Origin: Somniosus microcephalus
Taxonomy: Eukaryota
NCBI GenBank assembly: GCA_052327205.1
Contig: CM126202.1
Location: 407,526,001-407,590,000, forward strand
Length of the DNA stretch: 64,000 bases
Direction: 5' to 3'
The notes under the pieces: generated by a model
Told to the model about the DNA's origin: nothing
Databases searched by the model: none
The model's input: only the letters and a program-made list of their open reading frames with translations
Position numbers and translations under genes: made by a program
Shown here: piece after piece, positions 5,966 through 64,000 of the stretch
How the letters are laid out: every line of letters begins with the position of its first letter
Numbering within the stretch: position 1 is the first letter of the stretch

Positions 5966-6059
5966 ATTTGGATGATCAGCCATGATCTCATTAAATGGTG
6001 GAGCGGGCTCGAGGGGCCGAATTCACTACTCCTGCTCCTATCTTCTATGTTTCTATGTA

Positions 6060-6450
6060 AATGGAGAGAGTATTATAATGGAGAGCCTTATATTGCGGGT
6101 GGTATGTAACCAAAGGAGTGTTGTGTTATAATAGCTGTGGCGTGTAACCAAAAGTGTTATATTGAGGGTGGTGTGTAACAAAGAGAGCTTCATAACCATA
6201 AGTGAGCCACAACTACGTGTATTATAACCGAGTGTCTTACACTGAGGACAAAGTGTAACAGAGTAAGTTATACGCCTTATAATGAGGGTGGATTTAACAG
6301 AGTGTTATAACTAACAGCCATATAATGTGGGTGGAGTATGTAATGGAGATAGTTATAACTGACAACCTTACAATGAAGATGGGTGTACCAAGAGTGCTGT
6401 AACTGAGAGCTCTATGATGTGGGGGTATAATAGAGCATGCTATAACGGAC
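6060..6450. repeat. Degenerate ~45-bp minisatellite (gtgttataactgagagccttataatgagggtgg-like)
   Basis: Motif recurs; a matching unit at 1094-1125 suggests the CR1 inserted into this array. Confidence 0.6.
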
Positions 6451-10575: not shown

Positions 10576-11670
10576 GGAACATACGAACAATGATGGACAG
10601 GTAAAGACCATCTGGTCTATCGAGCCTGTCCCACACAATTACAATACCTTGTGTATCACAACATATACACTCCATCCCACCTAAAACCATGTGATCTCCT
10701 GGGAGAGGCAAAAAATTTTTTTTTTTAAACCCAGGCCAATTTGGGGGGAAAAAATCTGGGAAATTTCTCTCTGACCCATCTAGGCAATTGAAAGGGCCCT
10801 GGTGAGACCACACCTGGAGTATTGTGTACAGTTTTGGTCTCCTTACCTAAGGAAGGATATACTTGCCATAGAGGGAATGCAACGAAGGTTCACCAGACTG
10901 ATTCCTGGGATAATGGGATTGTCCTATGAGGAGAGATTGAGTAGACTAGGCCTATATTCTCTGGAGTTTAGAAGAATGAGAGGTGATCTCATTGAAACAT
11001 ACAAAATTCTTACAGGGCTTGACAGGGTAGATGCATGGAGGATGTTTCCCCTGGCTGGGGAGTCGAGAACCAGGGGTCACAGTCTCAGAATAAGGGGTCG
11101 GCCATTTAGGACTGAGATGAGGAGAAATTTCTTCACTCAGAGGGTGGTGAATCTTTGGAATTCTCTACCCCAGAGGGCTGTGGAGACTCAGTCGTTGAGT
11201 GTATTCAAGACAGTGATCGATAGAGTTTTGGATATTAAGGGAATCAAGGGATATGGGATAGTGCAGGAAAGTGGAGATGAGGTAGAAGATCAGCCATGAT
11301 CTTACTGAATGGCAGAGCTGGCTCGAAGGGCCAAATGGCCTACTCCTGCACCTATTTCTTATGTTCTTATGAAACTAGTCCAGGAGATCACTCTGGCCCT
11401 GAATTCCTTGCAGTACCTACCTTCTGTAAGAGGTGATCTCCGCCCCAGCCAGAAACAGGTCCAGCTCTCGCCTGAAAGAATTCAGCGAGCCCGCGCCACC
11501 GCTCGAGACGGCAGCCTACTCCAGAGGTTCACTATTCTCTGGGAAAAGAACCACCTCCTGACATCTAACCTAGATCTGGCCTTATACAACTTAAATTTGT
11601 GATCCCTGGTCCTCCCTAACCTATTTAATAGAAACAAACTGTCAGCTGGAACACAATCTATTCCCTTCAT
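10576..11670 (-). mobile_element. CR1 3' fragment (second family), interrupted by the 10794-11370 insertion
   Basis: RTRDHKFKL..RRWFFSQRIVNLW at 11482-11670; tail at ~10576; tgaaa duplicated around the nested insert. Confidence 0.75.
10794..11370 (+). mobile_element. 5'-truncated CR1 3' end
   Basis: ORF 10802-11299 = ORF2 C-terminus; tail ttcttatgttctta. Confidence 0.92.
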
Positions 11671-17063: not shown

Positions 17064-19281
17064 AATATGCAAAAAACTGGAAAAGCTCGAAATGGCCATA
17101 AAAGATAACCAAAACCCGCTAGACTCCATAATAACAGAAAAAGAACTAGTTGAAAAACTCAAGGACCTGCGACCAGGAAAAGCTTGCGGTGCAGACGGCA
17201 TACTAAGCGAGATGATTAAACACACAGACGATAAAATGAAACTGGCTATCCTAAAACTCTTCAACTTGGTTCTGAGTGTCGGTTACTTCCCTGATATCTG
17301 GAACAAAGGACTCATAATGCCCATATACAAAAGTGGGGACAAAGTCGACCCAAATAACTATCGAGGCATCTGTGTAAACAGTAACCTGGGGAAGGTATTC
17401 TGTAGTATCATAAACAAAAGACTTATAAACTTCCTTGAGGAGCACAATGTCTTGAGTAAAAGCCAAATTGGATTCCTGCCAAACTATAGAACATCAGATC
17501 ATATCTTCACCCTACAGACCCTAATTGACAAACACGTTCATCAAAACAAAAGCAAAATCTACGCATGCTTTATAGATTTCCAGAAGGCTTTCGATTCCAT
17601 CTGGCACGACGGTTTATTCCTGAAACTTATCGAAAGCGGGGTAGGGGGAAAAACATATGATGTAATTAAATCAATGTATACAAACAACAAATGTGCAGTT
17701 AAAATTGGAGAAAAACAAACAAAATACTTCCCACAGGGGCGGGGGGTGACGCAGGGCTCGCCCATCTCACCGACACTCTTTAATATTTACATAAATGAAT
17801 TGGCAAAACTACTTGAACAATCTACAGCACCTGGCCTCACCCTATATGAATCCAAGGTTAAATTCCTCCTCTATGCAGATGACCTGGTTCTGCTGTCACC
17901 AACTAAGGAGGGTCTACAGCAGAACCTGGATCTGCTGGAGTCGTTCTGCCAGACCTGGGCCCTGACAATAAATCCCCAAAAAACCAAAGTCCTTGTGTTC
18001 CAGCAAAGATCCAGACATCAGGGACCCAAAATAAATTTCACACTAGGAACAACCAAAATTGAACAAACCACTAACTACACATACTTGGGCTTAAAAATCA
18101 GTTCTACGGGAAATTTTCATCTGGCTGTGAATGAACTGAAAGAGAAAGCAAGAAGGGCTTTCTATGCCATTAAAAAATCAATCCAAATAGAAATCCCAAT
18201 TAGCATTTGGCTCAAAATTTTTAAATCAGTAATTGAACCAATGGCAGTGAGGTGTGGGGACTGCTAACACAACAAGAATTTGCAAAATGGGACAAACACC
18301 CAATTGAGGTCCTACATGCAGAATTCTGTAAAAGTATCCTCCGGACTCAAAGGAAAACCGTAAACAATGCATGCAGGGCAGAACTAGGCCAATATCCATT
18401 AATAATCACTATCCAAAAAAGAGCCACCAAATTTTGGAAACACCTAGAAATGAGCAACCCCCAATGCTATCATTACGAAGCCCTGAAATGCCAAGAGAGG
18501 ACCATAAAGAAGAATACCGTCAGTCAACTAGTCCTGGGACTCAGTGAAGTAACTACTAACACTACTAACAATAACCAGCCCCAGGACAGTGACAGCGTAA
18601 CACAAAGAATTCGACCCAACACAATCGTCGCTAAGCAAAAGGAAAAATATCTGTCATATTGGACAGAAACAACAAAAACCCAAAGCAAACTCAATTGCTA
18701 CTTGGCCCTAAACAGACAATACAACATGGCTGATTACCTGACCATGGTAAAGGATAGCAAACTGAGAAAAACCTTGACAATGTACAGACTTAGTGAACAT
18801 AGCCTGGCGATCGAAAAAGGTAGACACAGGCAGACCTGGCTACCAAGAGAGGACAGGATATGCTCTCACTGCAGTCAGGGAGTGGTGGAGACAGAGATGC
18901 ACTTCCTCACAGCTTGTAGAAAATATCAGGGCATAAGGGAGAATTTCTACCCAAAATTCACAAAAATATGCCCGGAATTCAGAAATTTGAATGACGACCA
19001 AAAACTCCCATACCTACTAGGGGAAGAGAGAAATTGTGTAACCTTAGTGGCACACTATGTTACAGCTTGCCATAAACAGAGGGACAACCACTAAATATAA
19101 GAAAAGAGTATATACAAATTATATGAAGTATATTTATACACTCAGGGATATATCTGTTTATACACTGTATGGATAGATCTGTATTTTTGTGTACAACCAT
19201 GAATGTTTTTCGATGTTTTGGCAACATAAGATGTACCTTGTCATGCCAATAAAGCGATTTGAATTGAATTGAAATTGAATT
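17064..19281 (+). mobile_element. 5'-truncated RTE-X-like non-LTR retrotransposon inserted in a GA satellite
   Basis: RT plus C-terminal RLSEHSLAIEKGR..RICSHC..ETEMHFL..C motif; AATAAA + (TTGAA)n tail running into gagagag. Confidence 0.85.
17092..19094 (+). pseudogene. RTE-X reverse transcriptase ORF, one frameshift (~18245), no endonuclease domain
   Basis: ORFs 17092-18267 (FIDFQKAFD, QGSPISP, LYADD) and 18252-19094. Confidence 0.88.
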
Positions 19282-19447
19282 GAGAGAGANNNNNNNNNNN
19301 NNNNNNNNNNNNNNNNNNNNNNNNNNNNNNNNNNNNNNNNNNNNNNNNNNNNNNNNNNNNNNNNNNNNNNNNNNNNNNNNNNNNNNNNNNNNNNNNNNNN
19401 NNNNNNNNNNNNNNNNNNNNNNNNNNNNNNNNNNNNNNNNNNNNNNN

Positions 19448-19906
19448 GGGGAAGGAGAGAGAGAGGGGGAAGGAGAGAGAGAGAGGGGGAAGGAGAGAGA
19501 GGGGGAAGGAGAGAGAGAGGGGGAAGGAGAGAGAGAGAGAGAGGGAAGGAGAGAGAGAGAGGGAAGGAGAGAGAGAAGGAAGAGGAGAGAGAGAGAGGGA
19601 AGGAGATAGAGAAGAGAGGAAGACACCCCGGGGAAGGGGTTGGACTCAGAGCCCGGCCCGGTGTCCCAGAGCCCCCATGCGCGGCATAGCACCTCAGGCC
19701 CGGCCGGAGTGACCCCAGCTCAGCTCCCGCTACGGCCCGCTGCCGGAGAGAGAGAGAGAGGGAAGGAGAGAGAGGGGGAAGGAGCGAGAGAGAGAGGGGG
19801 AAGGAGAGAGAGGGGGAAGGAGAGAGAGAGAGAGGGGGAAGGGGAGAGAGAGAGGGGGGAAGGAGCGAGAGAGAGAGGGGGAAGGAGAGAGAGAGAGGGG
19901 GAAGGA
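19448..19906. repeat. (ggggaaggagagagaga)n satellite with assembly gaps
   Basis: Directly visible; N runs on both sides. Confidence 0.9.
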
Positions 19907-20705
19907 NNNNNNNNNNNNNNNNNNNNNNNNNNNNNNNNNNNNNNNNNNNNNNNNNNNNNNNNNNNNNNNNNNNNNNNNNNNNNNNNNNNNNNNNNNNNNN
20001 NNNNNNNNNNNNNNNNNNNNNNNNNNNNNNNNNNNNNNNNNNNNNNNNNNNNNNNNGAAGACACCCCGGGGAAGGGGTTGGACTTAGAGCCCAGCCTTGG
20101 TGACCCAGAGCCCCCATGCGCGGCGTAGCGCCTCAGGCCCGGCCCGAGTGACCCCAGCTCAGCTCCCGCTCCGGCCTGCCACCGCCGCTCCCCTGCTCGA
20201 TGTCTTTCGGGCTCTCAGGCCACACGGGTGTATCTGTCTCTGTGTGTGAATGCTCACTGTCTATCGGGCTCTCGGGCCGCGTGGTTGTCTCTGTCTATGT
20301 CTGTGTATCTGTTTTCCCAGTCCCGCACTCACGGCAGGCTGCAGGATTAGGCCCCACCCACACACGCCATGAAATGCCCCCCATGATGCACTGCGCTTCC
20401 CCCGTAGGACTGGTCAACCATCACATCACTCAACGCTAATGAGCGGATTTTGTCCGTTTTTTGAAAGTTTTCTGTATACTGTCCAAGTAATCTTTGTCTG
20501 ACCAAAAAGTAAATATGCCTATGACACTCCCCTAATCATAAGCTTTCTTTTGATATAACATATGTGCAGGTAAGCTCTATAACCTTTGAGTTTACCGCGG
20601 ACATACACACAGACAGACAGACAGACAGATCCATTTATATATATAAAATAATAACTAGCTGGAGTGCCCGGCGGTGCCGAGGGTTTTTTGAGGGCATGTT
20701 GTTGT

Positions 20706-22330
20706 TGGAAGAGAGTGAGAGAGTGACTGGGGGGAAGAAAGAGAGCGACTTGGGGGAAGAGAGAGAGCGACGGGGGGAAGAGAGAGAGCGACTGGGGGAA
20801 GAGAGAGAGCGACTGGGGGGAAGAGAGACAGCGACTGGGGGAAGAGAGAGAGCGACTGGGGGGAAGAGAGCGAGCGACTGGGGGGAAGAGAGAGATGACT
20901 GGGGGGAAGAGAGAGACGACTGGGGGAAGAGAGAGAGCGAAGGGGGGAAGAGAGAGAACGACTGGGGGCAAGAGAGAGAGCGACTGGGGGGAAGAGAGAG
21001 AGCGACTGGGGGGAAGAGAGAGAGTGACGGGGGAAGAGAGAGAGCGACTGGGGGAAGAGAGAGAGCGACTGGGGGGAAGAGAGAGAGAGCGACTGGGGGG
21101 AAGAGAGAGAGAGAGCGACGGGGGGAAGAGAGAGAGCGACTGGGAGGAAGAGAGAGAGCGACGGGGGGAAGAGAGAGAGCGACTGGGGGGAAGAGAGAGA
21201 GAGCGACTGGGGGGAAGAGAGAGAGTGACTGGGGGGAAGAGAGAGCGCGACTGGGGGGAAGAGAGAGATGACTGGGGGGAAGAGAGAGACGACTGGGGGA
21301 AGAGAGAGAGCGAAGGGGGGAAGAGAGAGAACGACTGGGGGCAAGAGAGAGAGCGACTGGGGGGAAGAGAGAGAGCGACTGGGGGGAAGAGAGAGAGTGA
21401 CGGGGGAAGAGAGAGAGCGACTGGGGGAAGAGAGAGAGCGACTGGGGGGAAGAGAGAGAGAGCGACTGGGGGGAAGAGAGAGAGAGAGCGACGGGGGGAA
21501 GAGAGAGAGCGACTGGGAGGAAGAGAGAGAGCGACGGGGGGAAGAGAGAGAGCGACTGGGGGGAAGAGAGAGAGAGCGACTGGGGGGAAGAGAGAGAGTG
21601 ACTGGGGGGAAGAGAGAGCGCGACTAGGGGGAAGGGGGGAAAGGGGGGGAAAGGGGGGGAAGGGGGGAAAGGGGGGAAAGGGGAGGGGAGGAAAGGGGAG
21701 GGGAGGGGGGGAAAGGGGGGAAAGGGGAGGGGAGGGGAAGGGGGAAAGGGGAGGAAAGGGGAGGGGAGGGGGAAAGGGATGGGGAGGGGGGAAAGGAGGA
21801 GGAAGGGGGGGAANNNNNNNNNNNNNNNNNNNNNNNNNNNNNNNNNNNNNNNNNNNNNNNNNNNNNNNNNNNNNNNNNNNNNNNNNNNNNNNNNNNNNNN
21901 NNNNNNNNNNNNNNNNNNNNNNNNNNNNNNNNNNNNNNNNNNNNNNNNNNNNNNNNNNNNNNNNNNNNNNNNNNNNNNNNNNNNNNNNNNNNNNNNNNNN
22001 NNNNNNNNNNNNNNNNNNNNNNNNNNNNNNNNNNNNNNNNNNNNNNNNNNNNNNNNNNNNNNNNNNNNNNNNNNNNNNNNNNNNNNGGGAGGAGCGAGGG
22101 GGAGGGAAGGGGGCGGGGGGAGGGGGAGGAGGGAGGAGGAGAGGGGGGGAGGAGGGAGGGAGGGGGGAGGAGGGAGGGGAGCGGGAGGAGGGAGGGGGAG
22201 AGGGGGGAGGGGGAAGAGGGGGGAGGGGGGGAGGAGGGAGAGCGGGGGAGAGGGGAGGGGGAGGGGAGAGGAGGGGGAGGAGGAGGGGGAGGGGAGGGGA
22301 GGGGTGGGGGAGGTGGGGGAAGGAGGGGGG
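20706..22330. repeat. ~22-bp (gagcgactggggggaagagaga)n satellite with a ~373-bp higher-order repeat, then G/A low complexity
   Basis: The variant block at ~20895 recurs at ~21268. Confidence 0.92.
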
Positions 22331-22645
22331 AGCCAGCAGACCCTCTCCCCTCTGCCGGCGATGGCTCCGCTGAGCTCCGTGCCGCCCCACGCACTGACAT
22401 GCCGAGCGCAGCGCCCCGGTCAACCCGAGCCCCGCCCTCCCGAGGCCGGGCCGGCTTGAGACGGCCGATTGCGGCTGGCCGGGCCCGGTTGCCTTGGTAA
22501 CCCTCCTCCCCTCTCCGCTTCCTGATCTCCGGGACCGGGCCTGAGCGGCTTGAGACGGCCGATTGCGGCTGGCGAGCCCAGTTGCCGGGGTAACCCTTTC
22601 CGCTCCCCCTCCCCTCCCGAGCCCGGATTCCTCCTGGTCCTCGCC

Positions 22646-23543
22646 TCAGGTGGCACTGGCACTGGCAGCTTCAGCGCGTTGAGCCCGAGTTGGTGCTGCT
22701 TCATCTGAAAGTGGGAGGTGGAAGAGTGGCTTTAGCAAAAGGACAGGTTTGCTGAAAGGCATGCCAGATTGCGGCAAGGCTCTGACATGGCTGTACACTG
22801 AGGATGCATGCTGGCGGGGGGACCAAGTGGAAGGCAACAGGTGGAAAAGGTGAGAGTCTTACCCTCGCTGTCAGTAATTGGGTCGGCAGATGCAGTGGTC
22901 ACTGGACCAGACAGACGTCCTCCAAGTATCTGGTGCACTCTCTGCTCCAGATCCGTGAGAGTGACCACTTGTGCAGGTCCGCCACCGGTTCGACGCTGCT
23001 CCTTTCTAATCTGTGCCATCTTGGACTGCAGGGGAAAGAAGGGGAGGTTCTGTTACATGAGGCCTTGAGACCTCATCGCATGCCCCCCATGGTGCAAGAG
23101 CCCTTACATGAGGCCTTGAGACCTCATCGCATGCCCCCCATGGTGCAAGAGCCCTTACATGAGGCCTTGAGACATCTGTCCATGTGTGTGGCCAGAAAGG
23201 GCCATGGGTGCATACTGACAGATGGCCATTGGGGCATCATTGCAGCAGGGTGCCCGAAGTCAGCTGCAGATGGAGGGAAGCACAAGTTTGGTAAACCATC
23301 ACTCACCCTAACGATCCGTGTGAGGTCATTGAATTTCTTCCTGCACTGAACAGGGGTCCTGGTCGCCATGCTGCTGGAATTCACCCTCACAGCAACCTCC
23401 CTCCAAGATCGTCGATAAGCCTTCTGATTTGGCCTCTTGCCATTATCCGGATACAGGACCTCTCGACGGTGTTCAACTGCAGCCACCAAGTGGTCCAGAG
23501 CCTCAGTGCTGAAGCGCTCTGCTCTCTGCCTAACCTTCTCCAT
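22646..23543 (-). CDS. Myb/SANT-like DNA-binding protein (Harbinger-derived), 3 exons 23543-23307, 23025-22863, 22704-22646, ~152 aa, C-terminally short
   Basis: FSTEALDHL..W..VA..VN..RTPVQCRKKFNDL; exon 2 KMAQIRKEQRRTGGGP..LTDLEQRV; canonical GT/AG sites, compatible phases (0,1), no internal stop. Confidence 0.75.
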
Positions 23544-23902
23544 AATGCACAAGTTTCTAACGCCAGACAAGGGCGAGCGCCGAATCTGAGGCCTACAGGG
23601 CGTTGGGTGTTTAAGCTCAGTCTGACTGACCCGCCCCTTTAAGAGCCGGCCGGCGCCTGTAGGTCTCGTGCTTTCCCGTAATTGAGTTCACCTGCGCTGC
23701 ACCCGTCTGCGTCGATATTGAGTAGCGCCTGGCCTTTTGCGCCTTAAGAGCACCATGCAACGGCTGATTTAGCGCCTCAATCCCCTTTAGGGGCGATGCA
23801 ACCCAATATCGCGCCAGTCGGCGATAAGTTTCGTCTGGCTATAAACTTTGCGCATCGCCAGTTCTAACGCCTCAAGCGGGGCTATACCCAATTTCTGGGC
23901 CT
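22650..23902 (-). mobile_element. One-ended Harbinger fragment inside Helitron B
   Basis: TIR-like aatttctgggcc at ~23891-23902; Helitron homology to unit C resumes at tgtgttttaaaagcaac; no second TIR and no transposase. Confidence 0.7.
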
Positions 23903-23969
23903 ATGTGTTTTAAAAGCAACTTTTTTTTTAAAGACGCAGAAAGCGGGAAAAAGAAATGAAAAGTTTGGA

Positions 23970-24200
23970 ATCAAGATGGCAGCGACTCACCTCGGTTCAG
24001 AACGATAAGGCCCGCCCACACACGCACCGATTGGTCGACCGTCAGGTCACCGAAGCGTAGGATTGGTCAATCGTCCCATCACTCAACTCTAGGAGGGCTC
24101 GCCCGCAAGCGCCAGGAACCCACCCCCGCCCCCGCCACGCAGCGATTGGTCGACCGTCGGGTCACTCGACCGTACGATTGGTCGAACTCGACGTCACTCG
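23970..24200 (-). promoter_or_regulatory. Promoter-like module in Helitron B: 4 CCAAT boxes, GC boxes, CRE-like and YY1-like motifs
   Basis: gattgg at 24029, 24061, 24144, 24176 (pairs 32 bp apart); ccgccc; acgtca; aagatggc. Confidence 0.55.
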
Positions 24201-24474
24201 ATGCTAATGAGCGGATAATGAGCGGAATGTTGAACGTTTTTTGGATACCGTGGGCGCAATTTTTGTCTCGCCGAAACGTAAATACGCTTATGACAGTTCT
24301 GGAATCGTAAGCTTTCTTTTGATGTAACACACGTGTAGGTACGCTCTATAACTTTCGAGTTTATACAATACAGACAGACAAACAGACAGACGGAATGACA
24401 GACAGACAGATCGACCGCTTTATATATATAGATGCCCGGCGGTGCCGAGGCTTTTTCGAGGGCATGTTGTTGTT

Positions 24475-25915
24475 GGAAGAGAGAGAGCGACTGGGGGGGA
24501 AGAGAGAGAGCGACTGGGGGGGAAGACAGAGCGCGACTGGGGGGGAAGAGAGAGCGACTGGGGGGGAAGAGAGAGAGAGAGCGACGGGGGGAAGAGAGAG
24601 AGAGAGCGACTGCGGGGGGAAGAGAAAGAGAGAGCGACTGGGGGGGAAGAGAGCGAGAGAGCGACTGGGGGGGAAGAGAGAGAGCGACTGGGGGGAAGAG
24701 AGAGAGCGACTGGGGGGGAAGAGAGAGAGCGACTGGGGGGGAAGAGAGAGAGCGACTGGGGGGGAAGAGAGAGAGCGACTGGGGGGGAAGAGAGAGAGCA
24801 ACTGAGGGGAAGAGAGAGAGCGACTGGGGGGAAGAGAGAGAGAGAGCAACTGGGGGGGAGAGAGAGAGCGACTGGGGGGAAGAGAGAGAGCGCCTGGAGG
24901 GAAGAGAGAGAGCGACTGGGGGGAAGAGAGAGAGCAACTGGGGGAAGAGAGAGAGCGACTGGGGGGAAGAGAGAGCGCGACTGGGGGGAAGAGAGAGAGC
25001 GACTGGGGGGAAGAGAGAGAGCGACTGGGGGGAAGAGAGCGAGCGACTGGGGGGAAGTGAGAGAGCGACTGGGGGGAAGAGAGAGAGCGACTGGGGGGAA
25101 GAGAGAGAGCGACTGGGGGGAAGAGAGAGAGCGACTGGGGGGAAGAGAGAGAGCGACTGGGGGGAAGAGAGAGAGCGACTGGGGGGAAGAGAGAGAGCGA
25201 CTGGGGGAAGAGAGAGAGCGACTGGGGGAAGAGAGAGAGAGCGACTGGGGGGAAGAGAGAGAGCGACTGGGGGGAAGAGAGTGAGCGACTGGGGGGAAGA
25301 GAGAGCGACTGGGTGGGAAGAGAGAGAGCGACTGGGGGGAAGAGAGAGAGCGACTGGGGGGAAGAGAGAGAGCGACTGGGGGGAAGAGAGAGCGAGAGAC
25401 TGGGGGAGAGAGAGAGAGAGACTGGGGGAGAGAGAGCGAGAGACTGGGGGAGAGAGAGAGCGAGAGACTGGGGGAGAGAGAGAGAGAGAGAGACTGGGGG
25501 GGAGAGAGAGAGAGAGAGACTGGGGGAGAGAGAGAGAGAGAGACTGGGGGAGAGAGAGAGAGAGAGAGACTGGGGAAGAGAGAGAGAGAGACTGGGGGAG
25601 AGAGAGAGATAGAGACTGGGGGGGAGAGAGAGAGAGACTGGGGGAGAGNNNNNNNNNNNNNNNNNNNNNNNNNNNNNNNNNNNNNNNNNNNNNNNNNNNN
25701 NNNNNNNNNNNNNNNNNNNNNNNNNNNNNNNNNNNNNNNNNNNNNNNNNNNNNNNNNNNNNNNNNNNNNNNNNNNNNNNNNAGAGAGACGGGGGGGAAAG
25801 AGAGAGAGAGAGACTGGGGGAGAGAGAGAGAGAGAGACTGGGGGAGAGAGAGAGAGACTGGGGGAGAGAGAGAGAGACTGGGGGAGAAGAGAGAGAGAGA
25901 GAGACTGGGGGGAGA
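24475..25915. repeat. GA-rich ~22-bp satellite of Helitron C
   Basis: Same unit as in B, grading to gagactgggggagagaga. Confidence 0.92.
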
Positions 25916-30810: not shown

Positions 30811-31071
30811 CAACTTATAATTAAATAAATGTAATTAATTAATTAATTAATTAATTAATTAAATTAAATAAATAAAGTGCCCCCTCAGTCTTTCTCGATG
30901 TTTCCATCTTGGTCTCTTTCGATGTTTCCCCTCTCTCTCTCTCAATGTTTCCTCTGTCTTTCTCGATGTTTCCTCTCAGTTTTTCTCAATGTTTCCCCTT
31001 GGTTTCTTCCACACACCTGACCTGCACATTACCCCTGGCTGTCCAACTTGGCGTCCTGGTAACCGGGTTCC

Positions 31072-31222
31072 GCTCCAGCTCTCATCCTTCAAACTGTCTC
31101 TCCAGCTCTCGACCTTCAAACTGTCTCTCCAGCTCTCGACCTTCAAACTGTCACTCCAGCTCTCGACCTTCAAACTGTCACTCCAGCTCCCGACCTTCAA
31201 ACTGTCTCTCCAGCTCTCGACT
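31072..31222. repeat. 27-bp tandem repeat x5.5, preceded by (TAAT)n and a ~22-bp repeat
   Basis: ctccagctctcgaccttcaaactgtct. Confidence 0.9.
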
Positions 31223-31589
31223 GGACTGACACTGCAATATGAGTGCCCAAGGCTGCATTATTCACCCTAACTAGTGTGGTGTTTTTGGTCAATTTCTTAA
31301 TTCTTTTCCCACTGAAGGTGTTGACTCTTGATGGGGTATGGTTCTATTGAAGCTGGCAGCCAATGGTACCTGATTCAAGTGGCTGGTCTTCATGCATGAG
31401 CCTTGCAGTGAGTGTCAGCAGGCTATTCAACCATGAGGAATATCAGAACAAGTCTAATCCTCACCTGTCTTCACCTGGTGTCCATATTTGTGCACTTACT
31501 GGCAGGAGTCACTGGATGGTGATCAGGAGTGGGAATCCAGATAATTTTCTCCTCCCTTATTCAGAAGCACATATGACAGTTGTAGCAAT

Positions 31590-37915: not shown

Positions 37916-37921
37916 GAAACC

Positions 37922-39324
37922 TAGAAACATAGAAACATAGAAGATAGGAGCAGGAGTAGGCCATTCGGCCCCTCGAACCTGTTCCGCCATTTATTGAGAT
38001 CATGGCTGATCATCCAAATTCAGTACCCTGTCCCTGCTTTCTCCCCATATCCCTTGATCCCTTTAGCCTTAAGAAATATATCCAACTCCTTCTTGAATAT
38101 ATTTAATGAATTGGCCTCAACTGCCTTCTGTGGTAGAGAATTCCACAAGTTCACCACTCTCTGGGTGAAGAAATTCCTCCTCATCTCAGTCCTAAATGGC
38201 TTATCCCTTAGCCTTAGACTGTGACCCCTGGTTCTGGACTCCCCGGCCATCGGGAACATCCTTCCTGCATCTAGTCTGTCTAGTCCTGTTAGAATTTTAT
38301 AAATTTCAATGAGATCCCCTCTCATTCTTCGAAACTCTAGCAAATATAAGCCCAATCGACCCAATCTCTCTTCATACGTCATTCCTGCCATCCCAGATAT
38401 CAGCCTGGTGAATCTTCGCTGCACTCCCTCCATGGCAAGAACATCCTTCCTCAGATAAGGCAACCAAAACTGCTTACAATACTCAAGGTGTAGTCTCACC
38501 AAGGCCCTGTACAACTGCAGCAAGACAGCCTTGCTCCTGTACTCGAATCCTCTTGCTATGAAGGCCAACATACCATTTGCCTTCTTAACTGCCTGCTGCA
38601 CCTGCATGCTTACCTTCAGCGACTGGTGCACAAGGACACCCAGGTCTCATTGCACTTCCCCTTTTCCCAATCTATTGCCATTCAGATAATAATCTGCCTT
38701 CCTGTTTTTGCCACCAAAGTGGATAACCTCGCATTTACCCACATTATACTGCATCTGCCATGCATCTGCCCAATCACCCAACCTGTCCAAATCATACTGG
38801 AGTTTCTCGGCATCCTCCTCACAGCACACATGCCCACCCAGCTTTGTGTCGTCTGCAAAATTGGAGATATTACATCTAGTTCCCTTGTCCAGATCATTTA
38901 TATATATTGTGAATAGCTGGGGTCCTAGCACCGATCCCTGCGGTACCCCACTAGTCACTGCCTGCCACTCGGAAAAAGACCCGTTTATTCCAACTCTTTG
39001 CTTCCTGTCTGCCAACCAGTTCTCTATCCACGTCAGCACCTTGCCCCCAATCCCATGTGCCTTAACTTTGCACGCTAATCTCTTATGCGGGACCTTATCG
39101 AAAGCCTTCTGAAAGTCCAAATACACCACATCCACTGGTTCTCCCGTATCTATTCTACCAGTTACATCCTCAAAAAATTCCAGTAGATTAGTCAAGCACG
39201 ATTTACCTTTTGTAAATCCATGTTGACTTTGTCTGATCCGGTCACTGTTTTCTAAGTGCTCTGCCATTACATCTTTTATAATGGACTCTAGCATTTTCCC
39301 CACTACCGATGTCAGGCTTACTGG
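37922..39324 (-). mobile_element. 5'-truncated CR1 (RT to tail)
   Basis: ORFs 38647-39303 (FADD) and 38020-38631; (tagaaaca)n tail. Confidence 0.95.
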
Positions 39325-40519
39325 ACTAAGAAAACTGAAGCAAAAAATTGGTGTGCCTCAACTCCAAAAAGTGTACTTCTACTATCCTTGGCCCTGGCGA
39401 GCAAGTGAGAAATGAAGAAAAGTAAGGAAAATGGGCTAAGAGCTCAGAGAGGCCAGAAAAGGGGTATTTTCAATAAATTATGACAATCTGCATTTTACAT
39501 GGACATCATTGTTTCAAACATAATATCCACTGCCCATGTTTGTGGGTAAAAGTTAGTGCAGATTTAGAGTCCTGTGCTTGGCCCAGGTCAGCCAAAGAGC
39601 CAGCACAACTCCGTTTTTCTATGGATGCACTAATGGGTTATACAGTTTCACAGCTTCAAGAATTGCCAACCACTCAGCCAAGACCTTGTGCTGTAGAGCT
39701 GACATTGGGTTGAATTTTAACTCTTACTACATCACCAGCCAAGTGTTCTTGATTGTCTTGTCCAGCTAAATCATTGGTGGAGAGGGAGAGAGGCAAACGG
39801 GGGATGCAAGACAGAGAAATCCTATTTGGCGCCAGGGAAATCAGTCAGCACTATAAAAGTCAATACAATGCCTAATAAAAGCAGACTCCAACCTGTCACT
39901 CGGGTATCATCCAGAGGGAGGATGTAGGTGGACTGGATAATCATTGTTCATTTCTTTGGCAAGTGAAAAGATTTTCACAAAGTAAAAAAACCAACCACAG
40001 CAAGTTGCTGAAATCTCAGGTGTAGGTCACAAGACAATGGTTCATTATTTTGCTGTGATATGGAGTTGCATTTTGCTTCAGTTTAGTATTATAGGATTAT
40101 GATGACTCTGTCAGCTGAGTTTCTGTTATTGATGGGATTCCCAGCTGAAGTAACATTTGTTTTGTGAAATAATATGGTCAGTCTGCTAAGAATAACTCAG
40201 CAAAGCAAGGAGAGATTGTTGCAGCTTTTAGGCGAAGATATGTAGTGGGCTCACAGTCATGTGGATATTTTATCCCGTGTTTATGAGTCTGTATTTAATT
40301 TGTGTAAATTAACATGTAATGGGCTATGCCTTTTGCTGGTTTGTATCTAGTGGGAGTGCCCGTTATATCAATCACCTTTAGATTCTTGCCATAGCATTCT
40401 CATACTGTGCTAGATTCCTGTTCTTTCCCACACTCTGTCTGTCACTTCCTGTCCTGTCCTGCCACTTCTCGACATATCTTTTCCATCTCATCCCATCAGT
40501 CATACCGCAGTGAGAAATA

Positions 40520-41336
40520 GGGGTCGATTTTCCTGGAGCCATCAGGCGGGGTTTCAGGCGTGTGGGGGGGGAAAATCCCGAATTCGGGAGTCCCGACACC
40601 ATCCCGCCCAAAACCCCGCTCCACGCAAGTTTCAGAGGCGGCGGGTACCCGCCCTGCACTGGGACCCGCCGACCCCAGGCGGGAAGGGATTAGTGCCAAT
40701 TAACTGCCTGTTAACAGGTAGTTAACAGGCAGTTTTTAGCCTAATCCCTATTTTGAGGGGTGTCGTGTGGGATTCCCGACGGCTCCAAACCATGCCAGGT
40801 TAGAGCAGGCGGGCCGTCGGGTTGAAGGAGTTGGAGGGGTCGCGATGTCGGTGTTCAGGTGAGTGATGGGTGCATGAGTGCAAAGGTAAGTGTGTTTGGT
40901 GTGTCCAAAGTGTGTAAAGAACTTTTAACTTACCTGTACTTACCTTAACAGCCTTTCTTCCTGTAGGCGTCGAGAGCGCATCACTCAGCCGGCACTTAAA
41001 GCTGAATGGCTGCGATCTGTGAAAAGTGACAGCCTTCAGCTTTGAGTGCTGCTGAGAGTTCTAACTGAGTCTGTGCAGAAGGACTCAGGTTAGAACTCAG
41101 ACTGTCAGTGTTTGGCAGCTTCAAACAGCTGTGAAACACTGATATTTCATCTGTCAAGAACTCTTGACAGATGAAATTGCAGTCTGTGACGTCACCTGTT
41201 GCTGGGTGGCCCTTAATTGGCCTGCTGAGCCCGCTGGGAAAATCGCACGGATTGGCTGGACGTCGATGTAGGCGGGTCTAAAACCCAAAAGTTGTAGTCT
41301 CGCCTTCTTCCCGACAGCTTCGGGAAAATCAACCCC
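40520..41336 (+). mobile_element. Harbinger-type MITE, TSD ATA
   Basis: TIR ggggtcgattttcc / ggaaaatcaacccc; ATA on both flanks. Confidence 0.85.
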
Positions 41337-41475
41337 ATAGACTTTGATTTAATCTCTTGCTGTTCCTTTTTTTTTCATTCCTTTAACTAGTTGAACAACC
41401 TCAGTGGAACGATCTCGGAAGGAGTATGGGAATTCAGGCCAATTCTTCTGGCAAACACAAAGACGCAGACACAAG

Positions 41476-42299
41476 GGGCTGGATTTTCATTGAGGAGGTG
41501 TGTAGGAGGCGGAACTACAACGTTCGGGGTTGTAGTCCCGCCTCCATCGAGTTGTGGCCAACCCACGCGATTTTCACTTGATTGACCTTGTTGAGCCCAC
41601 CCAGTGGGCTCAGCAGGCCAATTAAGGGCCACCCGGCAACAGGCGATGTCACAGATTGACATTTCATCTGTCAAAAGCTTTTGACAGATGAAATATCAGC
41701 GTTTGACAGCTGTCAATCTGTACTCCAAGTTAATTCCTTCCTCTCAGGCTGATTTAGAGATCTCTCCAGAACAGAAGGCTGAATGCTGCAACTTTTGACA
41801 GCTCACGGCCATTCTGCTTTCTATGCCGGTGAGATGAGGGACTCCCGAGACCTGAAGGAAGGAAGGCTGTAAAGGTAAGTAAATGTAAGTAAAACTTCTT
41901 TAAACACTTTACAAACACCAAACACACTTACCTCTGCACTCATGCACCCATCACTCACCTGAACACCAGACATCTCGAACCCTCCAAGACCTTCAGCCCG
42001 ACGGCCCGCCTCGCTAACTTGGCGTGGTTTGGAACCGTCGGGAATCCCACACTTCAGCAATAAAAATAGGGATTAGGCTAAAAACTGCCTGTTAACTACC
42101 TGTTAATAGGCAGTTAATTGGCACTAATCCCCTTCCCACCTCGGGGAGGTGGGTCCCAGCACAGGTTGGGTATCCGCCTCCTTTGAAACTGGCATGGAGG
42201 CAGGTTGGGGGCAGGATGGGTTTTTGGCCCCCGATTTTGAGATTTTAACCCCCCACATGCCTCCAATCCCGCCTCCACGGCCCAATGAAAATCCTGCCC
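41476..42299 (-). mobile_element. Related MITE in inverted orientation, TSD AAG
   Basis: TIR gggctggattttca / tgaaaatcctgccc; the body is the reverse complement of the 40520 element. Confidence 0.85.
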
Positions 42300-59486: not shown

Positions 59487-60897
59487 TAGAAACATAGAAG
59501 ATAGGGGCAGGAGTAGGCCATTCGGCCCCTCAAGCCCGCTCCGACATTTAATGAGATCATGGCTGATCATCCAAATTCAGTAGCCTGTCCCTGCTTTCTC
59601 CCCATATTCCTTGATCCCTTTAGCTTCAAGAAATATATCCAACTCCTTCTTGAATATATTTAATGAATTGCCCTCAACTGCCCTGTGTGGCAGAGAATTC
59701 CACAGGTTCACCACTCTCTGGGTGAAGAAATTCCTCCTCATCTCTGTCCTAAATGGCTTACCCCTTATCCTTAGACTGTGACCCCTGGTTCTGGACTCCC
59801 CCACAATTGGGAACTTCCTTCCTGCATCTAGTCTGTCTAGTCCTGTTAGAATTTTATAAGTTTCAATGAGATCCCCTCTCATTCTTCTAAACTCTAGCGA
59901 ATATAAGCCTAATCGACCCAATCTCTCCTCATGTGTCATTCCTGCCATCCCAGGTATCAATCTGGTGAATCTTCACTGCACTCTCTCCATAGCAAGAACA
60001 TCCTTCCTCAGATAAGGTGACCAAAACTGCACACAATACTCAAGGAGTGGTCTCACCAAGGCCCTGTACAACTGCAGCAAGACATCCTTGCTCCTGTACT
60101 CAAATCCTCTCACTATGAAGGCCAACATACCATTTGCCTTCTTAACCGCCTGCTGCACCTGCATGCTTACCTTCAGCGACTGGTGCACAAGGACACACAG
60201 GTCTTGTTGCACTTCCCCTTTTCCCAATCTATTGCCGTTCAGATAATAATCTGTCTTCCTGTTTTTGCCACCAAAGTGGATAACCTCGCATTTATCCACA
60301 TTATACTGCATTTGCCATGCATCTGCCCAATCACCCAACCTGTCCAAATCATACTGGAGGTTCTCTGCATCCTCCTCACAACACACACGCCCACCCAGCT
60401 TTGTGCCATCTGCAAACTTGGAGATATTACATCTAGTTCCCTCGTCTAGATCATTTATATATATGTTGTGAATAGCTGGGGTCCTAGCACCGATCCCTGC
60501 GGTACCCCACTAGTCACTGCCTGCCACTCGGAAAAAGACTCTTTGCTTCCTGTCTGCCAACCAGTTCTCTATCCAAGACAGTACCTTACCCCCAATCCCA
60601 TGTGCTTTAACTTTACACGCTAATCTCTCATGCGGGACCTTATCGAAAGCCTTCTGAAAGTCCAAATACACCACATCCACTGGTTCTCCCTTATCTTTTC
60701 TACCAGTTACATCCTCAAAAAATTCCAGTAGATTAGCCAAGCATGATTTACCTTTTGTAAATCCATGTTGACTTTGTCTGATCTTGTCACTTTTTTCCCA
60801 AATGCTCTGCTATTACATCTTTTATAATGGACTCTAGCATTTTCCCCACTACCGATTCCCTGTTTTCTCTCTACCACCCTTTTGAAATAGTGGGGTT
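59487..60897 (-). mobile_element. 5'-truncated CR1, same subfamily as 1127-6058
   Basis: ORF2 fragments 59577-60740; shared diagnostic variants; tail tagaaacataga. Confidence 0.95.
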
Positions 60898-61049
60898 TCA
60901 TGAATGTTTCTGGAATACTCATTTTACATAAACTCCACAGAGTAGCAATTAATGTCTGTACATCAAAGGTTTGTGAGGCCACAAGGATGCAGCAGGGTCT
61001 ATTCTTCTGACAGTGGAGTTCAGGAATATTGTAGAAGCAGAGAAGAGGG

Positions 61050-62000
61050 AGCTTTCAACCATACCCTCACCACCACCTTTGATGCCCTAGTCCCTATTAA
61101 AACAATTACCCTCTCTCACCCTAGCTGTTCCCCCGGTACGGCCCTCATTTTTGCTCCCTTAAGTCCAAGAGACGCAGACTTGAACGGATATGGCAGACAA
61201 CTGGTTTAGCCATTCACCGCCAGGTCTGGTTGGACCACATAAAGCATTATTGGGTTCTGCTCTCATCTGCCAAAACTACTCACTATTCCAGAATCATCCT
61301 GGAATGCAAAGATAAACCCCAGATTCTATTCTCTACTGCTAGCCATCATTTTAAACCCCTTTCCCCTGTCTCCTCCACCCTCACCTCTGGCAACAAGTGT
61401 GAGGAGCTCCTGGACTTTTTGTCTCGAAGATTGAGACCATCCGTTCAGCTGCCTCTGCCACTTCCCTTCCTTCCCCAAGCCCACCGGGCCAAACTTTCTC
61501 TTATGTTCTCCCCTGCCCTAGCCCTGAACTCGCATCATTCTCCAGTTGTTCTCCGATCTCCCCTCATGACCTCTCCGCACTCATCTTGTCCACGAGACCC
61601 AGTTCCTGCTCCCTCAACCCTATTTCCACCAAACTGCTGACTACCCAACTTCCTTTTCTGGCTCCCATGTTAGCTGACATTGTTAACGGTTCTTTTTCCT
61701 CAGGTACTGTCCCCCTCTCCCTCAACTCTGCCGTCATCACCCCACTACTCAAAAAAACAACCCTTGACCCCTCCGTCCTTGCAAACTACTGCCACATCTC
61801 CAACCTCCCTTTCCTCTCCAAAGTCCTTGAACGTGTTGTCACCACCCAAATCCGTGCCCATCGTTCCCCCAACTCCATATCTGAATCCCTCCAATCAGGT
61901 TTCCGCCCCTGCCACAGTACTGAAATGGCTCTCATCAGTCACAAATGACATCCTTTGTGACTGTGGCAAAGGTAAACTATCCCTCCTCGTCCTTCTCGAC
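61050..62000 (+). mobile_element. L2-like LINE ORF2 fragment
   Basis: SSCSLNPISTKLL..NGSFSSGTVP..ISNLPFLSKVLER..QSGFRPCHSTE. Confidence 0.85.
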
Positions 62001-62783
62001 AAAGTCCCACATGGGAGACTGGTCAAGAAGGTAAGAGCCCATGGGATCCAGGGCAAATTGGCACATTGGTTCCAAAATTGGCATAGTAGCAGGAGGCAGA
62101 GGGTGATGGTCGAAGGTTGTTTTTGTGACTGGAAGCCTGTGTCCAGTGGTGTACCGCAGGGATCAGTCCTGGGTCCTTTGCTGTTTGTAGTGTACATTCA
62201 TGATTTAGATATGAATGTAGGAGGTATGATCAGTAAGTTCGTAGATGACACGAAAATTGGTGGAGCGGCAAATAGCGAGGAGGGAAGCCTTAGGCTACAG
62301 GGCGATATAGATGGGTTGGTCAGATGAACAGAACAGTGGCAAATGGAATTTAACCCAGAAAAGTGTGAGGTGATGCATTTTGGGAGGACTAACAAGGCAA
62401 GGGAATACACAATGAATGATAGGACCCTAGGAAGGACAGAGGATCAGAGAGACCTTGGTGTGCATGTACATAGATCCCTGAAGGCAGCAGGACAGGTAGA
62501 TAAGGTGGTTAAAAAGGCATATGGGATACTTGCCTTCATTAACCGAGACATAGAACATAAGAGGGGAGGTTATGATGGAGCTGTACAAAACGCTAGTTGG
62601 GCCACAGCTGGAATACTGTGTGCAGTTCTGGTCGCCACACTATAGAAAGGATGTGATTGCATTGGAGAGGGTGCAGAGGAGATTCATTAGGATATTACCT
62701 GGGCTGGAGCGCTTCAGCTATGATGAGAGACTGGACAGGCTGGGGTTGTTTTCCTTAGAGCAGAAAAGGCTGAGGGGGACCTG
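62001..62783 (+). mobile_element. CR1 RT fragment fused to the L2 piece and interrupted by the LTR element
   Basis: KVPHGRL..GVPQGSVLGP..FVDDTK..LEYCVQFWSP. Confidence 0.88.
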
Positions 62784-64000
62784 TGATGTACCTATCAATT
62801 CATTCCATGAAAAGCGACGAGTTAAGATAGTAACTATAGGTTTTTATTGGCTAAATAACAGAGCCCACCCTCGTGGGTGATCGGTTCCAACAAGCAAGAA
62901 TACTAGCCAAGCGGTCACCTTTATACCTGGGCAAGCAGGCGGAGCCATGGGCGGAGTCAGCTGAGGTGTGCCTAGGTATAACAGCGTGCGTGGCAAGAGG
63001 TAACCTTGTGTAGTGATAACAACAGTGTAAACAGTGATAACAACAGTGTAACAATAGTGAACGGTTGTGAACGATAACAGTGGTTTACCACATTCACCCC
63101 TTGTTTAAAATTGAGTCCGGCGGGGTGAAGTGTACTACCAGTTCGTGTATGTCAGTCTATCAGGAGGCCTCGTAAGCCTTTCTGGTCGGCGCAGCAGCGG
63201 CGGCGGTGGTGCAGTATCCGATGTTAATGCTGGTGTCTGCGTGGTCGACGAAGGCTCCTGGGGTTCCGGCATGCCGCCTACAGGAGCTGGATTTGGGGGA
63301 GTGGTGGGGGATAACGGTGGTATCTCAGGGGTGCCCGAGGGTGCGAGGTCTCGCAAGGAGCAAGGAGCTGCTTTCAAGCCGAGGTCCTTTGATTCGAGCA
63401 GTCTTTGCCATGAGTAGTCGGGCCGAAGGCCTTTCACGAAGGCATCACGGATATTTCCTTCAGCATGTTGTGCAGCCGATACAGCTTTAAAGTCACAGTC
63501 CCTGCCGAGTGTTTGTAGCGCCCGTAAAAATTCATCTACAGACTCTCCTGGCTGTTGCGAGCGGGATCTTAGGAGGTGTCTGGCATACATTGAATTTACT
63601 GGGCTCCGGTACTGCTCTTTTAGCAGGTCGAGGGCCTCCTCGTATGTAGCAAGGTCCCGGATGAGTGCAAATACTTTAGGGCTCACCTGGGCGGTCAGAA
63701 CTCTTAGTTTGTCGGCTTCCGATGGCACGCCGGAGGCTACCAGGTAGGATTCAAAGCAGCTCAGCCAGTGATCGAAGTCGAGGGCTGAATTCGCTGCCTG
63801 TGGGTTTAGATCCAGGTACGGCGGTCGGAGGGCTCGCAGCCAAGTCGGCTGCTGGGGCTGTTGTAGCTGGCCGTTTGGCTGGTCGTTTGGCTGCTCCAGT
63901 CCATTCATTTCAAAATTTAGCCAATAAAATTGATATACCTATCAATTCATTCCATGAAAAGCGACGAGTTAAGATAGTAACTATAGGTTTTTATTGGCTA
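62784..64000 (-). mobile_element. Internally deleted Gypsy-like LTR retrotransposon: 3' LTR 62784-63092; 5' LTR from 63931 past the window end
   Basis: Near-identical direct repeats; TG..CA ends; PPT (aaacaaggggtgaa) at ~63093-63107; TATAAA at 62920-62925 and AATAAA on minus. Confidence 0.9.
63135..63908 (-). CDS. Gag N-terminal/capsid region fused in frame to a Pol C-terminal tail (257 aa)
   Basis: FDHWLSCFESYL..QQPGESVDEFL..IRDAFVKGL then Pro-rich LRRPERLTRPPDRL; no PR/RT/IN. Confidence 0.75.
   Translation of the reverse strand: MNGLEQPNDQPNGQLQQPQQPTWLRALRPPYLDLNPQAANSALDFDHWLSCFESYLVASGVPSEADKLRVLTAQVSPKVFALIRDLATYEEALDLLKEQYRSPVNSMYARHLLRSRSQQPGESVDEFLRALQTLGRDCDFKAVSAAQHAEGNIRDAFVKGLRPDYSWQRLLESKDLGLKAAPCSLRDLAPSGTPEIPPLSPTTPPNPAPVGGMPEPQEPSSTTQTPALTSDTAPPPPLLRRPERLTRPPDRLTYTNW

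Follow-up and report, generated by a model that had tools for sequence, protein, structure and literature searches.

This text concerns a 64,000-nucleotide (nt) stretch of Somniosus microcephalus DNA (assembly GCA_052327205.1, contig CM126202.1, positions 407,526,001 to 407,590,000 of the forward strand), referred to below as the window. A retrotransposon of the Ty3/gypsy lineage, with long terminal repeats (LTRs) on either side, lies at its right end on the minus strand. The 15-mer that follows the 5' LTR of this element is very probably a primer binding site (PBS) at which reverse transcription is primed with the element's own RNA, in the manner of Tf1. The complementarity between PBS and LTR is a real, clade-wide feature. 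The priming would be a variant of the known Tf1 mechanism, and the comparative sequence evidence for it is strong. Self-priming had been suggested in the initial annotation of the window, and the suggestion is well supported by the kept pairing, by its polarity and by the lack of a TGG start in all 24 families studied. Articles are cited here for those portions of their text that were available.

Pairing of the primer binding site with the LTR

The PBS of the window element occupies 63915..63929 on the minus strand, which carries all features of the element. It starts one base behind the CA that ends the 5' LTR at 63931, and this spacer base (63930..63930) is an A, as it is in 20 of the 24 families described below. 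The 15-mer (63929-63915) is the exact reverse complement of 62856-62842 in the 3' LTR and occurs once per strand across the 64-kb window. The last 70 nt of the 5' LTR (63931..64000, with one mismatch to 62853-62784) lie in the window and the remainder lies beyond it, so that 12 nt of the partner segment are visible there as a candidate self-primer (63989..64000, AATAAA at 63995-63990). The full 15-nt partner in the 3' LTR (62842..62856) holds AATAAA at 62848-62843, the only AATAAA or ATTAAA of the 309-nt LTR, and an initiator-like TTAGC at 62854-62850. The initial annotation had described an A and then this 15-mer, not TGG, behind the LTR, and a perfect 15-nt complement holding AATAAA; all of its coordinates proved correct. 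A stem-loop in the unique 5' region (U5) of the LTR begins directly behind the partner in the minimum-energy fold (63937..63988, arms 63988-63983 and 63942-63937). In the fold of the window leader, partner and PBS are predicted to pair with probabilities of 0.72-1.0.

Related loci were used for a comparative test of this pairing. Reverse transcriptase (RT) patterns gave 84 loci, consisting of the best 80 of 522 confirmed ones and 4 from a second search. A usable gag start was present in 46 of them (38 were dropped) and enough upstream DNA in 42 (4 more were dropped). In L015 and L020, two of the loci dropped for short upstream DNA, the contig ends in an LTR copy with which 12 and 13 nt pair. 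Of the 42 loci, 39 have an inverted repeat of 10-18 nt, without mismatch, within 220 nt before gag, versus 3 of 126 shuffles. The 42 loci and the window were grouped into 24 families at a 75% DNA threshold. Pairing was anchored at the LTR end plus one base, and five loci were re-anchored by a second rule. In the best copy per family, the PBS pairs with its own LTR at 11/11 positions in 18 families, at 10/11 in five and at 6/11 in one. The letters differ widely: there are 22 distinct PBS 11-mers among the 24 families, cross-family pairing averages 7.2/11 and is perfect in 4 of 552 comparisons, and the window PBS reaches at most 8/11 with other families. The initial annotation had proposed to look for covariation among related families. 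Pairing is indeed kept with different letters, at 10/11 or better in 23 of 24 families.

The extent of the covariation was followed along the paired segment with a random copy per family. Own-LTR and cross-family pairing frequencies are 0.96 and 0.45 at positions 5-9, 0.99 and 0.68 at positions 10-11, 0.85 and 0.42 at positions 12-13, and 0.66 and 0.40 at positions 14-16 (0/10,000 permutations in each case). At positions 17-20 both are 0.26, which is chance level. Positions 14-16 are mostly free of anchor bias and the drop after position 16 is no artefact of anchoring. Some features are fixed. A-T pairs occupy positions 1, 2 and 3 in 21, 23 and 23 of 24 families and a G-C pair occupies position 10 in 22. 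The invariant letters are TAAA, then a purine and CCT; purine-CCT stands behind the partner in 16 of 24 families, and a downstream AGGY in U5 that is able to close the stem is found in 12. Because the letters of the U5 stem arms hardly vary, the stem receives no support from covariation. The partner and the PBS lie 20-86 nt apart, and the helix between them is predicted at a mean probability of 0.79-0.99 in 22 of 23 related leaders. Two loci differ in their state: L009 has one base altered in both LTRs and compensated in the PBS, and L001 has a change that its two LTRs share and its PBS lacks. Either state would be expected of a PBS that takes its letters from the LTR with a delay of one cycle.

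A chance match, or a one-off replication error in the window copy, would suit a segment that is AT-rich in a copy that is defective. When the LTR was dinucleotide-shuffled 20,000 times (305 of its 309 nt used) and the longest complement starting no more than 3 nt from the LTR end was recorded, a complement of 13 nt was reached once and one of at least 14 nt never. Clade-wide conservation also speaks against chance, as do RNA reads and contigs from other copies of the family, in which the LTR end runs into the same PBS. The chance reading was ruled out on the inverted repeats and the own-LTR pairing counted above, and its probability is negligible.

Priming by a host tRNA, a tRNA half or another small RNA, with the LTR match being secondary, would find a TGG within the window 15-mer, 7 nt past the LTR end. 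This internal TGG falls outside the 0-5 nt window after the LTR in which tRNA PBS calls are made (PMC6317226). Half-tRNA primers do exist in copia lineages (PMC6317226), but covariation of the PBS with the element's own LTR argues against them here. TGG is found within 5 nt of the LTR in 0 of 24 families and at the 7-nt place in 1 of 24. The 22 different 11-mers each follow their own LTR and not a host RNA common to them. C61 is conserved in tRNAs, and the window PBS, read by eye as a tRNA 3' end, lacks it. A search of the element returned no tRNA or Rfam family, the Rfam match being at chance level only. On these comparisons, priming by a host RNA is very improbable.

The helix could instead serve only to mask the 5' poly(A) signal, with something else acting as the primer. 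Masking of the 5' poly(A) signal is known from the leaders of HIV-1 and foamy virus. It would fit a partner that holds the only AATAAA of the LTR, a helix that is predicted to form, and the AATAAA or ATTAAA that lies at the partner's end, within the paired segment, in 15 of 24 families. The remaining 9 families pair without a canonical signal. The masking strand also occupies the exact PBS position and leaves no other primer site, given the lack of TGG within 5 nt. Finally, the polarity of the pairing places the partner's 3' end (...TAAA) against U5, in a fixed position opposite the base that follows the spacer; this is a requirement of priming but not of masking. Masking as the sole function is improbable. 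As a second benefit of a self-priming helix, and not as its main constraint, the masking that the initial annotation had suggested would fit the predicted fold and is likely under the model given below.

A splice-acceptor reading of the conserved T-rich/AG letters was rejected, since 6 of 24 families have T at position 11 and the pairing of the PBS with unspliced sequence runs across the supposed junction. Separately, the LTRs of L023, L029, L033, L059 and L060 carry pyrimidine runs followed by CAG, 15-45 nt upstream of the paired segment. These CAG-ended runs resemble 3' splice sites in sequence, and some families may carry an intron, either within the LTR or in the transcript's 3' part.

Transcription start and the priming model

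Two RNA runs from one organism and contigs from two organisms were aligned to 62760-63930. The family is multi-copy and transcribed, and its internal part is read mostly in the element sense, assuming that the libraries have the usual strandedness. Reads that join the LTR end to the PBS (62784 to 63930) number 7 and 57 in the two runs, and the same junction occurs in contigs. In nine reads of run X17, which have two start points, the LTR end continues into the opposite strand at 62842. They extend at least 32 nt on each side, so that the PBS complement is at least 17 nt longer than in the window. Neither the other RNA run nor either of the contig sets contains this complement of at least 32 nt, which may stem from a genomic copy made from a long primer or may be a fold-back artefact of the library.

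The possible promoter TATAAA at 62920..62925 (62925-62920 in element sense) predicts a start 39 nt from the paired segment. This agrees with the figure of about 40 nt in the initial annotation as arithmetic, and the TATA-based start itself is doubtful, the motif not being conserved in relatives. Only 5 of 24 families have a TATA-like hexamer upstream, and its distance is scattered. A T-T-A-G-pyrimidine (TTAGY) motif that resembles the initiator consensus stands at positions 13-9, towards the 5' end of the paired segment. One contig (L041) starts exactly at the first base of its 13-nt paired segment (L041:1-13), which is a hint only. The ends of the L011 and L012 contigs were considered as RNA ends and rejected, since both LTR matches are exactly 127 nt, a value that an assembly word length would give. 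From the rare and scattered TATA, the TTAGY motif, the loss of pairing after position 16 and the L041 contig start, we judge it somewhat probable that transcription starts within a few bases of the helix 5' end. A start at the TATA-predicted site is less probable, though still a serious candidate. The TATAAA of the window family and the 32-nt reads point to a longer primer. Whether Tf2 makes its primer depends on which start is chosen (PMC5341516), and for this reason both starts could be used here.

The proposed mechanism is as follows. The 5' part of the transcript would fold onto the PBS and form a helix of 11-16 bp beside the U5 stem. The RNA would be cut just behind ...TAAA, by the element's RNase H if the analogy with Tf1 holds. 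The freed 3' OH would prime minus-strand DNA through U5. The cut would lie directly behind the poly(A) signal, and 10-30 nt between cut and poly(A) site would therefore remain as the repeat for the first strand transfer. Plus-strand synthesis would then copy the primer and rewrite the PBS, and the covariation would be accounted for in this way. In addition, the 5' poly(A) signal would be concealed by the helix, and that of the 3' LTR, which is not followed by a PBS, would remain free. A copy without pol, such as that of the window, would need the RT of an intact partner, and intact partners exist in rays and sharks.

Self-priming could also use the other end of the transcript. The 3' repeat copy at the end of the genomic RNA would pair with the PBS, be cut behind the poly(A) signal and leave an RNA circle. 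This copy carries positions 12-16 whatever the start and would explain the covariation there, and its primer end would coincide with the poly(A) signal. The 5' copy lies only 20-86 nt from the PBS, however, with a high predicted probability of pairing in cis. Cutting the 3' copy would remove the post-signal sequence that strand transfer would use, and no precedent was found. Cleavage for polyadenylation falls 10-30 nt downstream of the signal and not at the signal itself. All this makes priming from the 3' copy quite improbable.

Several points weigh against self-priming as we propose it. The cut, the primer and the strong-stop DNA are inferred from sequence, and none was observed. The starts of the listed RNA-seq reads do not cluster at 62852-62856 or near 62895, and the loose ends shown, 426 others not being among them, include no poly(A) tail. 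Covariation to position 16 misfits a strict 11-nt primer that starts at the A of TTAG. The anchors maximised pairing over 13 positions (16 in five loci), which inflates the own-pair values at those positions. L060 reaches 6/11 in the anchored test, yet has an offset 13-nt complement. The L009 and L001 changes are single events each. Overall, the visible leader folds with an unremarkable energy (z -0.93).

A more specific proposal, which we regard as rather doubtful, is that the clade invented self-priming independently of Tf1/sushi. One short sequence would then serve as the 3' poly(A) signal, as the masked 5' signal and as the end of the primer. The primer would be either a capped fragment of 32 to about 55 nt that is paired only at its 3' end or the 3' repeat copy, cut exactly behind the poly(A) signal, and not the transcript's initial 11 bases.

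Lineage and comparison with known systems

The first (gag) part of the element's open reading frame (ORF) has 2095 homologs in a HMMER search of 1.84 billion representatives. Word-index protein searches with gag gave no matches, unlike the full HMMER library, and scans of a viral contig collection found no relatives. Among the named gag homologs, the closest belong to a stingray, two sharks and a manta, which makes a cartilaginous fish the probable host. Relatives of full length consist of one ORF of about 1,200 amino acids (aa) in the order gag, protease, RT, RNase H and integrase. This is the pol order of Ty3/gypsy, seen in the relatives and not in the window copy itself, which has no pol. 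The LTR features of Ty3/gypsy are likewise present: a 309-nt LTR bounded by TG...CA, a polypurine tract, and, seen in relatives, target-site duplications of 5 bp. Such duplications occur in 12 of 21 two-LTR relatives, two of the 12 probably being the same insertion; duplications of 4 or 6 bp occur in 0 of the 21 and none was found in 9. In relatives, the best solved-structure match is Ty3 Gag-Pol (E 9e-65), and the gag profile has no informative solved-structure match. A ray protein with 58% gag identity contains RT, RNase H and integrase and groups with self-pairing loci. In an RT tree with 22 related loci tested for self-pairing, four RTs from sharks and rays come together as a 100/100 group; the backbone of this tree is unresolved, its outgroup is a single, very long and unlabelled branch, and it holds no labelled Tf1 or sushi sequence. 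Named relatives in the clade come from a sea anemone, nematodes, a sea cucumber, a tunicate, sharks and rays. The name Smaug, considered as a possible label for the clade, was not found in that sense.

Two observations concern the clade at large. In several of its RTs (P0152, P0068, P0093 and P0142), DN replaces the second catalytic D of the YxDD motif, and these include full-length open polyproteins. L081-L084 are animal-type clade elements on contigs filed under bacterial genome bins, and these contigs are most likely host DNA in bacterial bins.

Tf1 is a demonstrated case of self-priming, which is also predicted for the relatives of Tf1 and for a single lineage of plant copia (PMC7175516, PMC6317226). 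The Tf1 transcript pairs with the PBS through its initial 11 bases and is cut by RNase H between base 11 and base 12 (PMC7175516). Tf1 and Tf2 of Schizosaccharomyces pombe and Tj1 of S. japonicus share with the present clade the Ty3/gypsy domain order, a PBS complementary to the own LTR and the lack of a tRNA site (PMC4600332, PMC7175516). The 11-bp helix core is shared with Tf1 (PMC7175516), and so is the geometry in which the partner's 3' end meets the first PBS base beside U5. The clade differs from the three elements in that covariation of the pairing extends over 16 positions, TAAA is the fixed end of the primer and usually a poly(A) signal, partner and PBS are 20-86 nt apart, no chromodomain is found in 11 of 11 polyproteins, and the hosts are animals. 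The predicted U5 stem here recalls a U5-IR-like structure that Tf1 reportedly needs, a finding ascribed to Lin and Levin in 1998.

LTR-PBS self-priming is predicted for the Tf1/sushi group, which includes vertebrate sushi elements and the fungal and moss Tcn1-like chromoviruses (PMC6317226). The present clade shares with this group the predicted mechanism, vertebrate hosts and an AATAAA close to the LTR 3' end (PMC3601003). It differs in that full-length members have no chromodomain, DUF4939 or Ty3_capsid match at E up to 0.1. The Pfam scan for a chromodomain at that threshold covered 11 polyproteins and found it in none, and the precomputed domains of 120 listed RT relatives include none. A chromodomain at the integrase C-terminus is typical of Tf1/sushi chromoviruses, though not universal. 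By these sequence features, membership in Tf1/sushi is unsupported.

Self-priming is also predicted from LTR-PBS complementarity for the TAR lineage of plant Ty1/copia, with Houba and Osr-1 (PMC6317226). TAR copia differs from the present clade by its copia domain order, its plant hosts and its resting on prediction only. It lies outside Tf1/sushi, and self-priming can therefore arise more than once. The fungal GalEa copia hairpin and the bivalve biv-TRIM share the lack of a tRNA PBS and a conserved inverted repeat at the PBS position (PMC5445492, PMC6934838). Both of their arms are described downstream of the LTR, which proved to hold no complement itself, whereas the partner here lies inside the LTR, upstream of U5.

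In the open literature we found no account of a self-complementary PBS that overlaps the poly(A) signal in an animal gypsy clade outside sushi, and the clade and its PBS may already be on record. The available parts of PMC2836005 and PMC6238403 yielded no description of such a PBS. If the self-priming reading is true, a widespread gypsy lineage without a chromodomain would be a further, possibly independent, case. Hairpin priming has been proposed as ancestral to tRNA priming (PMC3601003), and self-priming in this clade would bear on whether it came first. The self-priming reading predicts at which base the cut falls, and it links the making of the primer with the poly(A) signal. Elements that prime themselves should be free from control by tRNA fragments, and they will be mis-scored by tools that demand a tRNA PBS.

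Structure of the window element and its surroundings

The window copy is an internally deleted, non-autonomous Ty3/gypsy element. A 257-aa ORF (63135..63908) fuses the N-terminal half of gag to the C-terminal tail of integrase, with a junction near 63360. The ORF has a weak Retrotrans_gag match and its tail resembles the C-termini of the relatives' integrases; no protease, RT, RNase H or integrase core is found in it, and there is no RT match within the window. Other copies continue with different sequence beyond 63360, from which the internal deletion and the non-autonomous state follow. A polypurine tract at 63093..63106 is recognised by its sequence and by its position directly before the 3' LTR; that of the relatives is similar and ends in GAA or AAA. 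The 3' LTR is complete (62784..63092, 309 nt, TG...CA), and reads and contigs from other copies bear out its end at 62784. The right half of a 5-bp target-site duplication is expected from the relatives at 62779..62783, and the left half would lie beyond the window.

The element sits in the apparent 3' part of a plus-strand ORF2 of a long interspersed nuclear element (LINE; 62000-62783, ORFs 62328-62645 and 62554-62880). From its peptide motifs we take this LINE to be of CR1 type; Pfam gave no match. Similar LINE pieces lie at about 4600-6060, 10790-11380, 37920-39330 and 59490-60900 of the window.

Elsewhere in the window, a 1.45-kb stretch at 40681-42136 consists of nested inverted arms with about 90% complementarity (40681-40803/42014-42136, 40850-40927/41890-41967 and 41125-41238/41600-41713). 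By its sequence arrangement it resembles a non-autonomous DNA transposon of large, palindromic form. At 19260-25600 lie long GA-rich tandem arrays, strongly skewed between the strands, whose units measure 8-23 nt. A 90-nt tandem repeat in 4 copies is found at 1140-1521, and a 27-nt tandem repeat in about 6 copies at 31046-31248.
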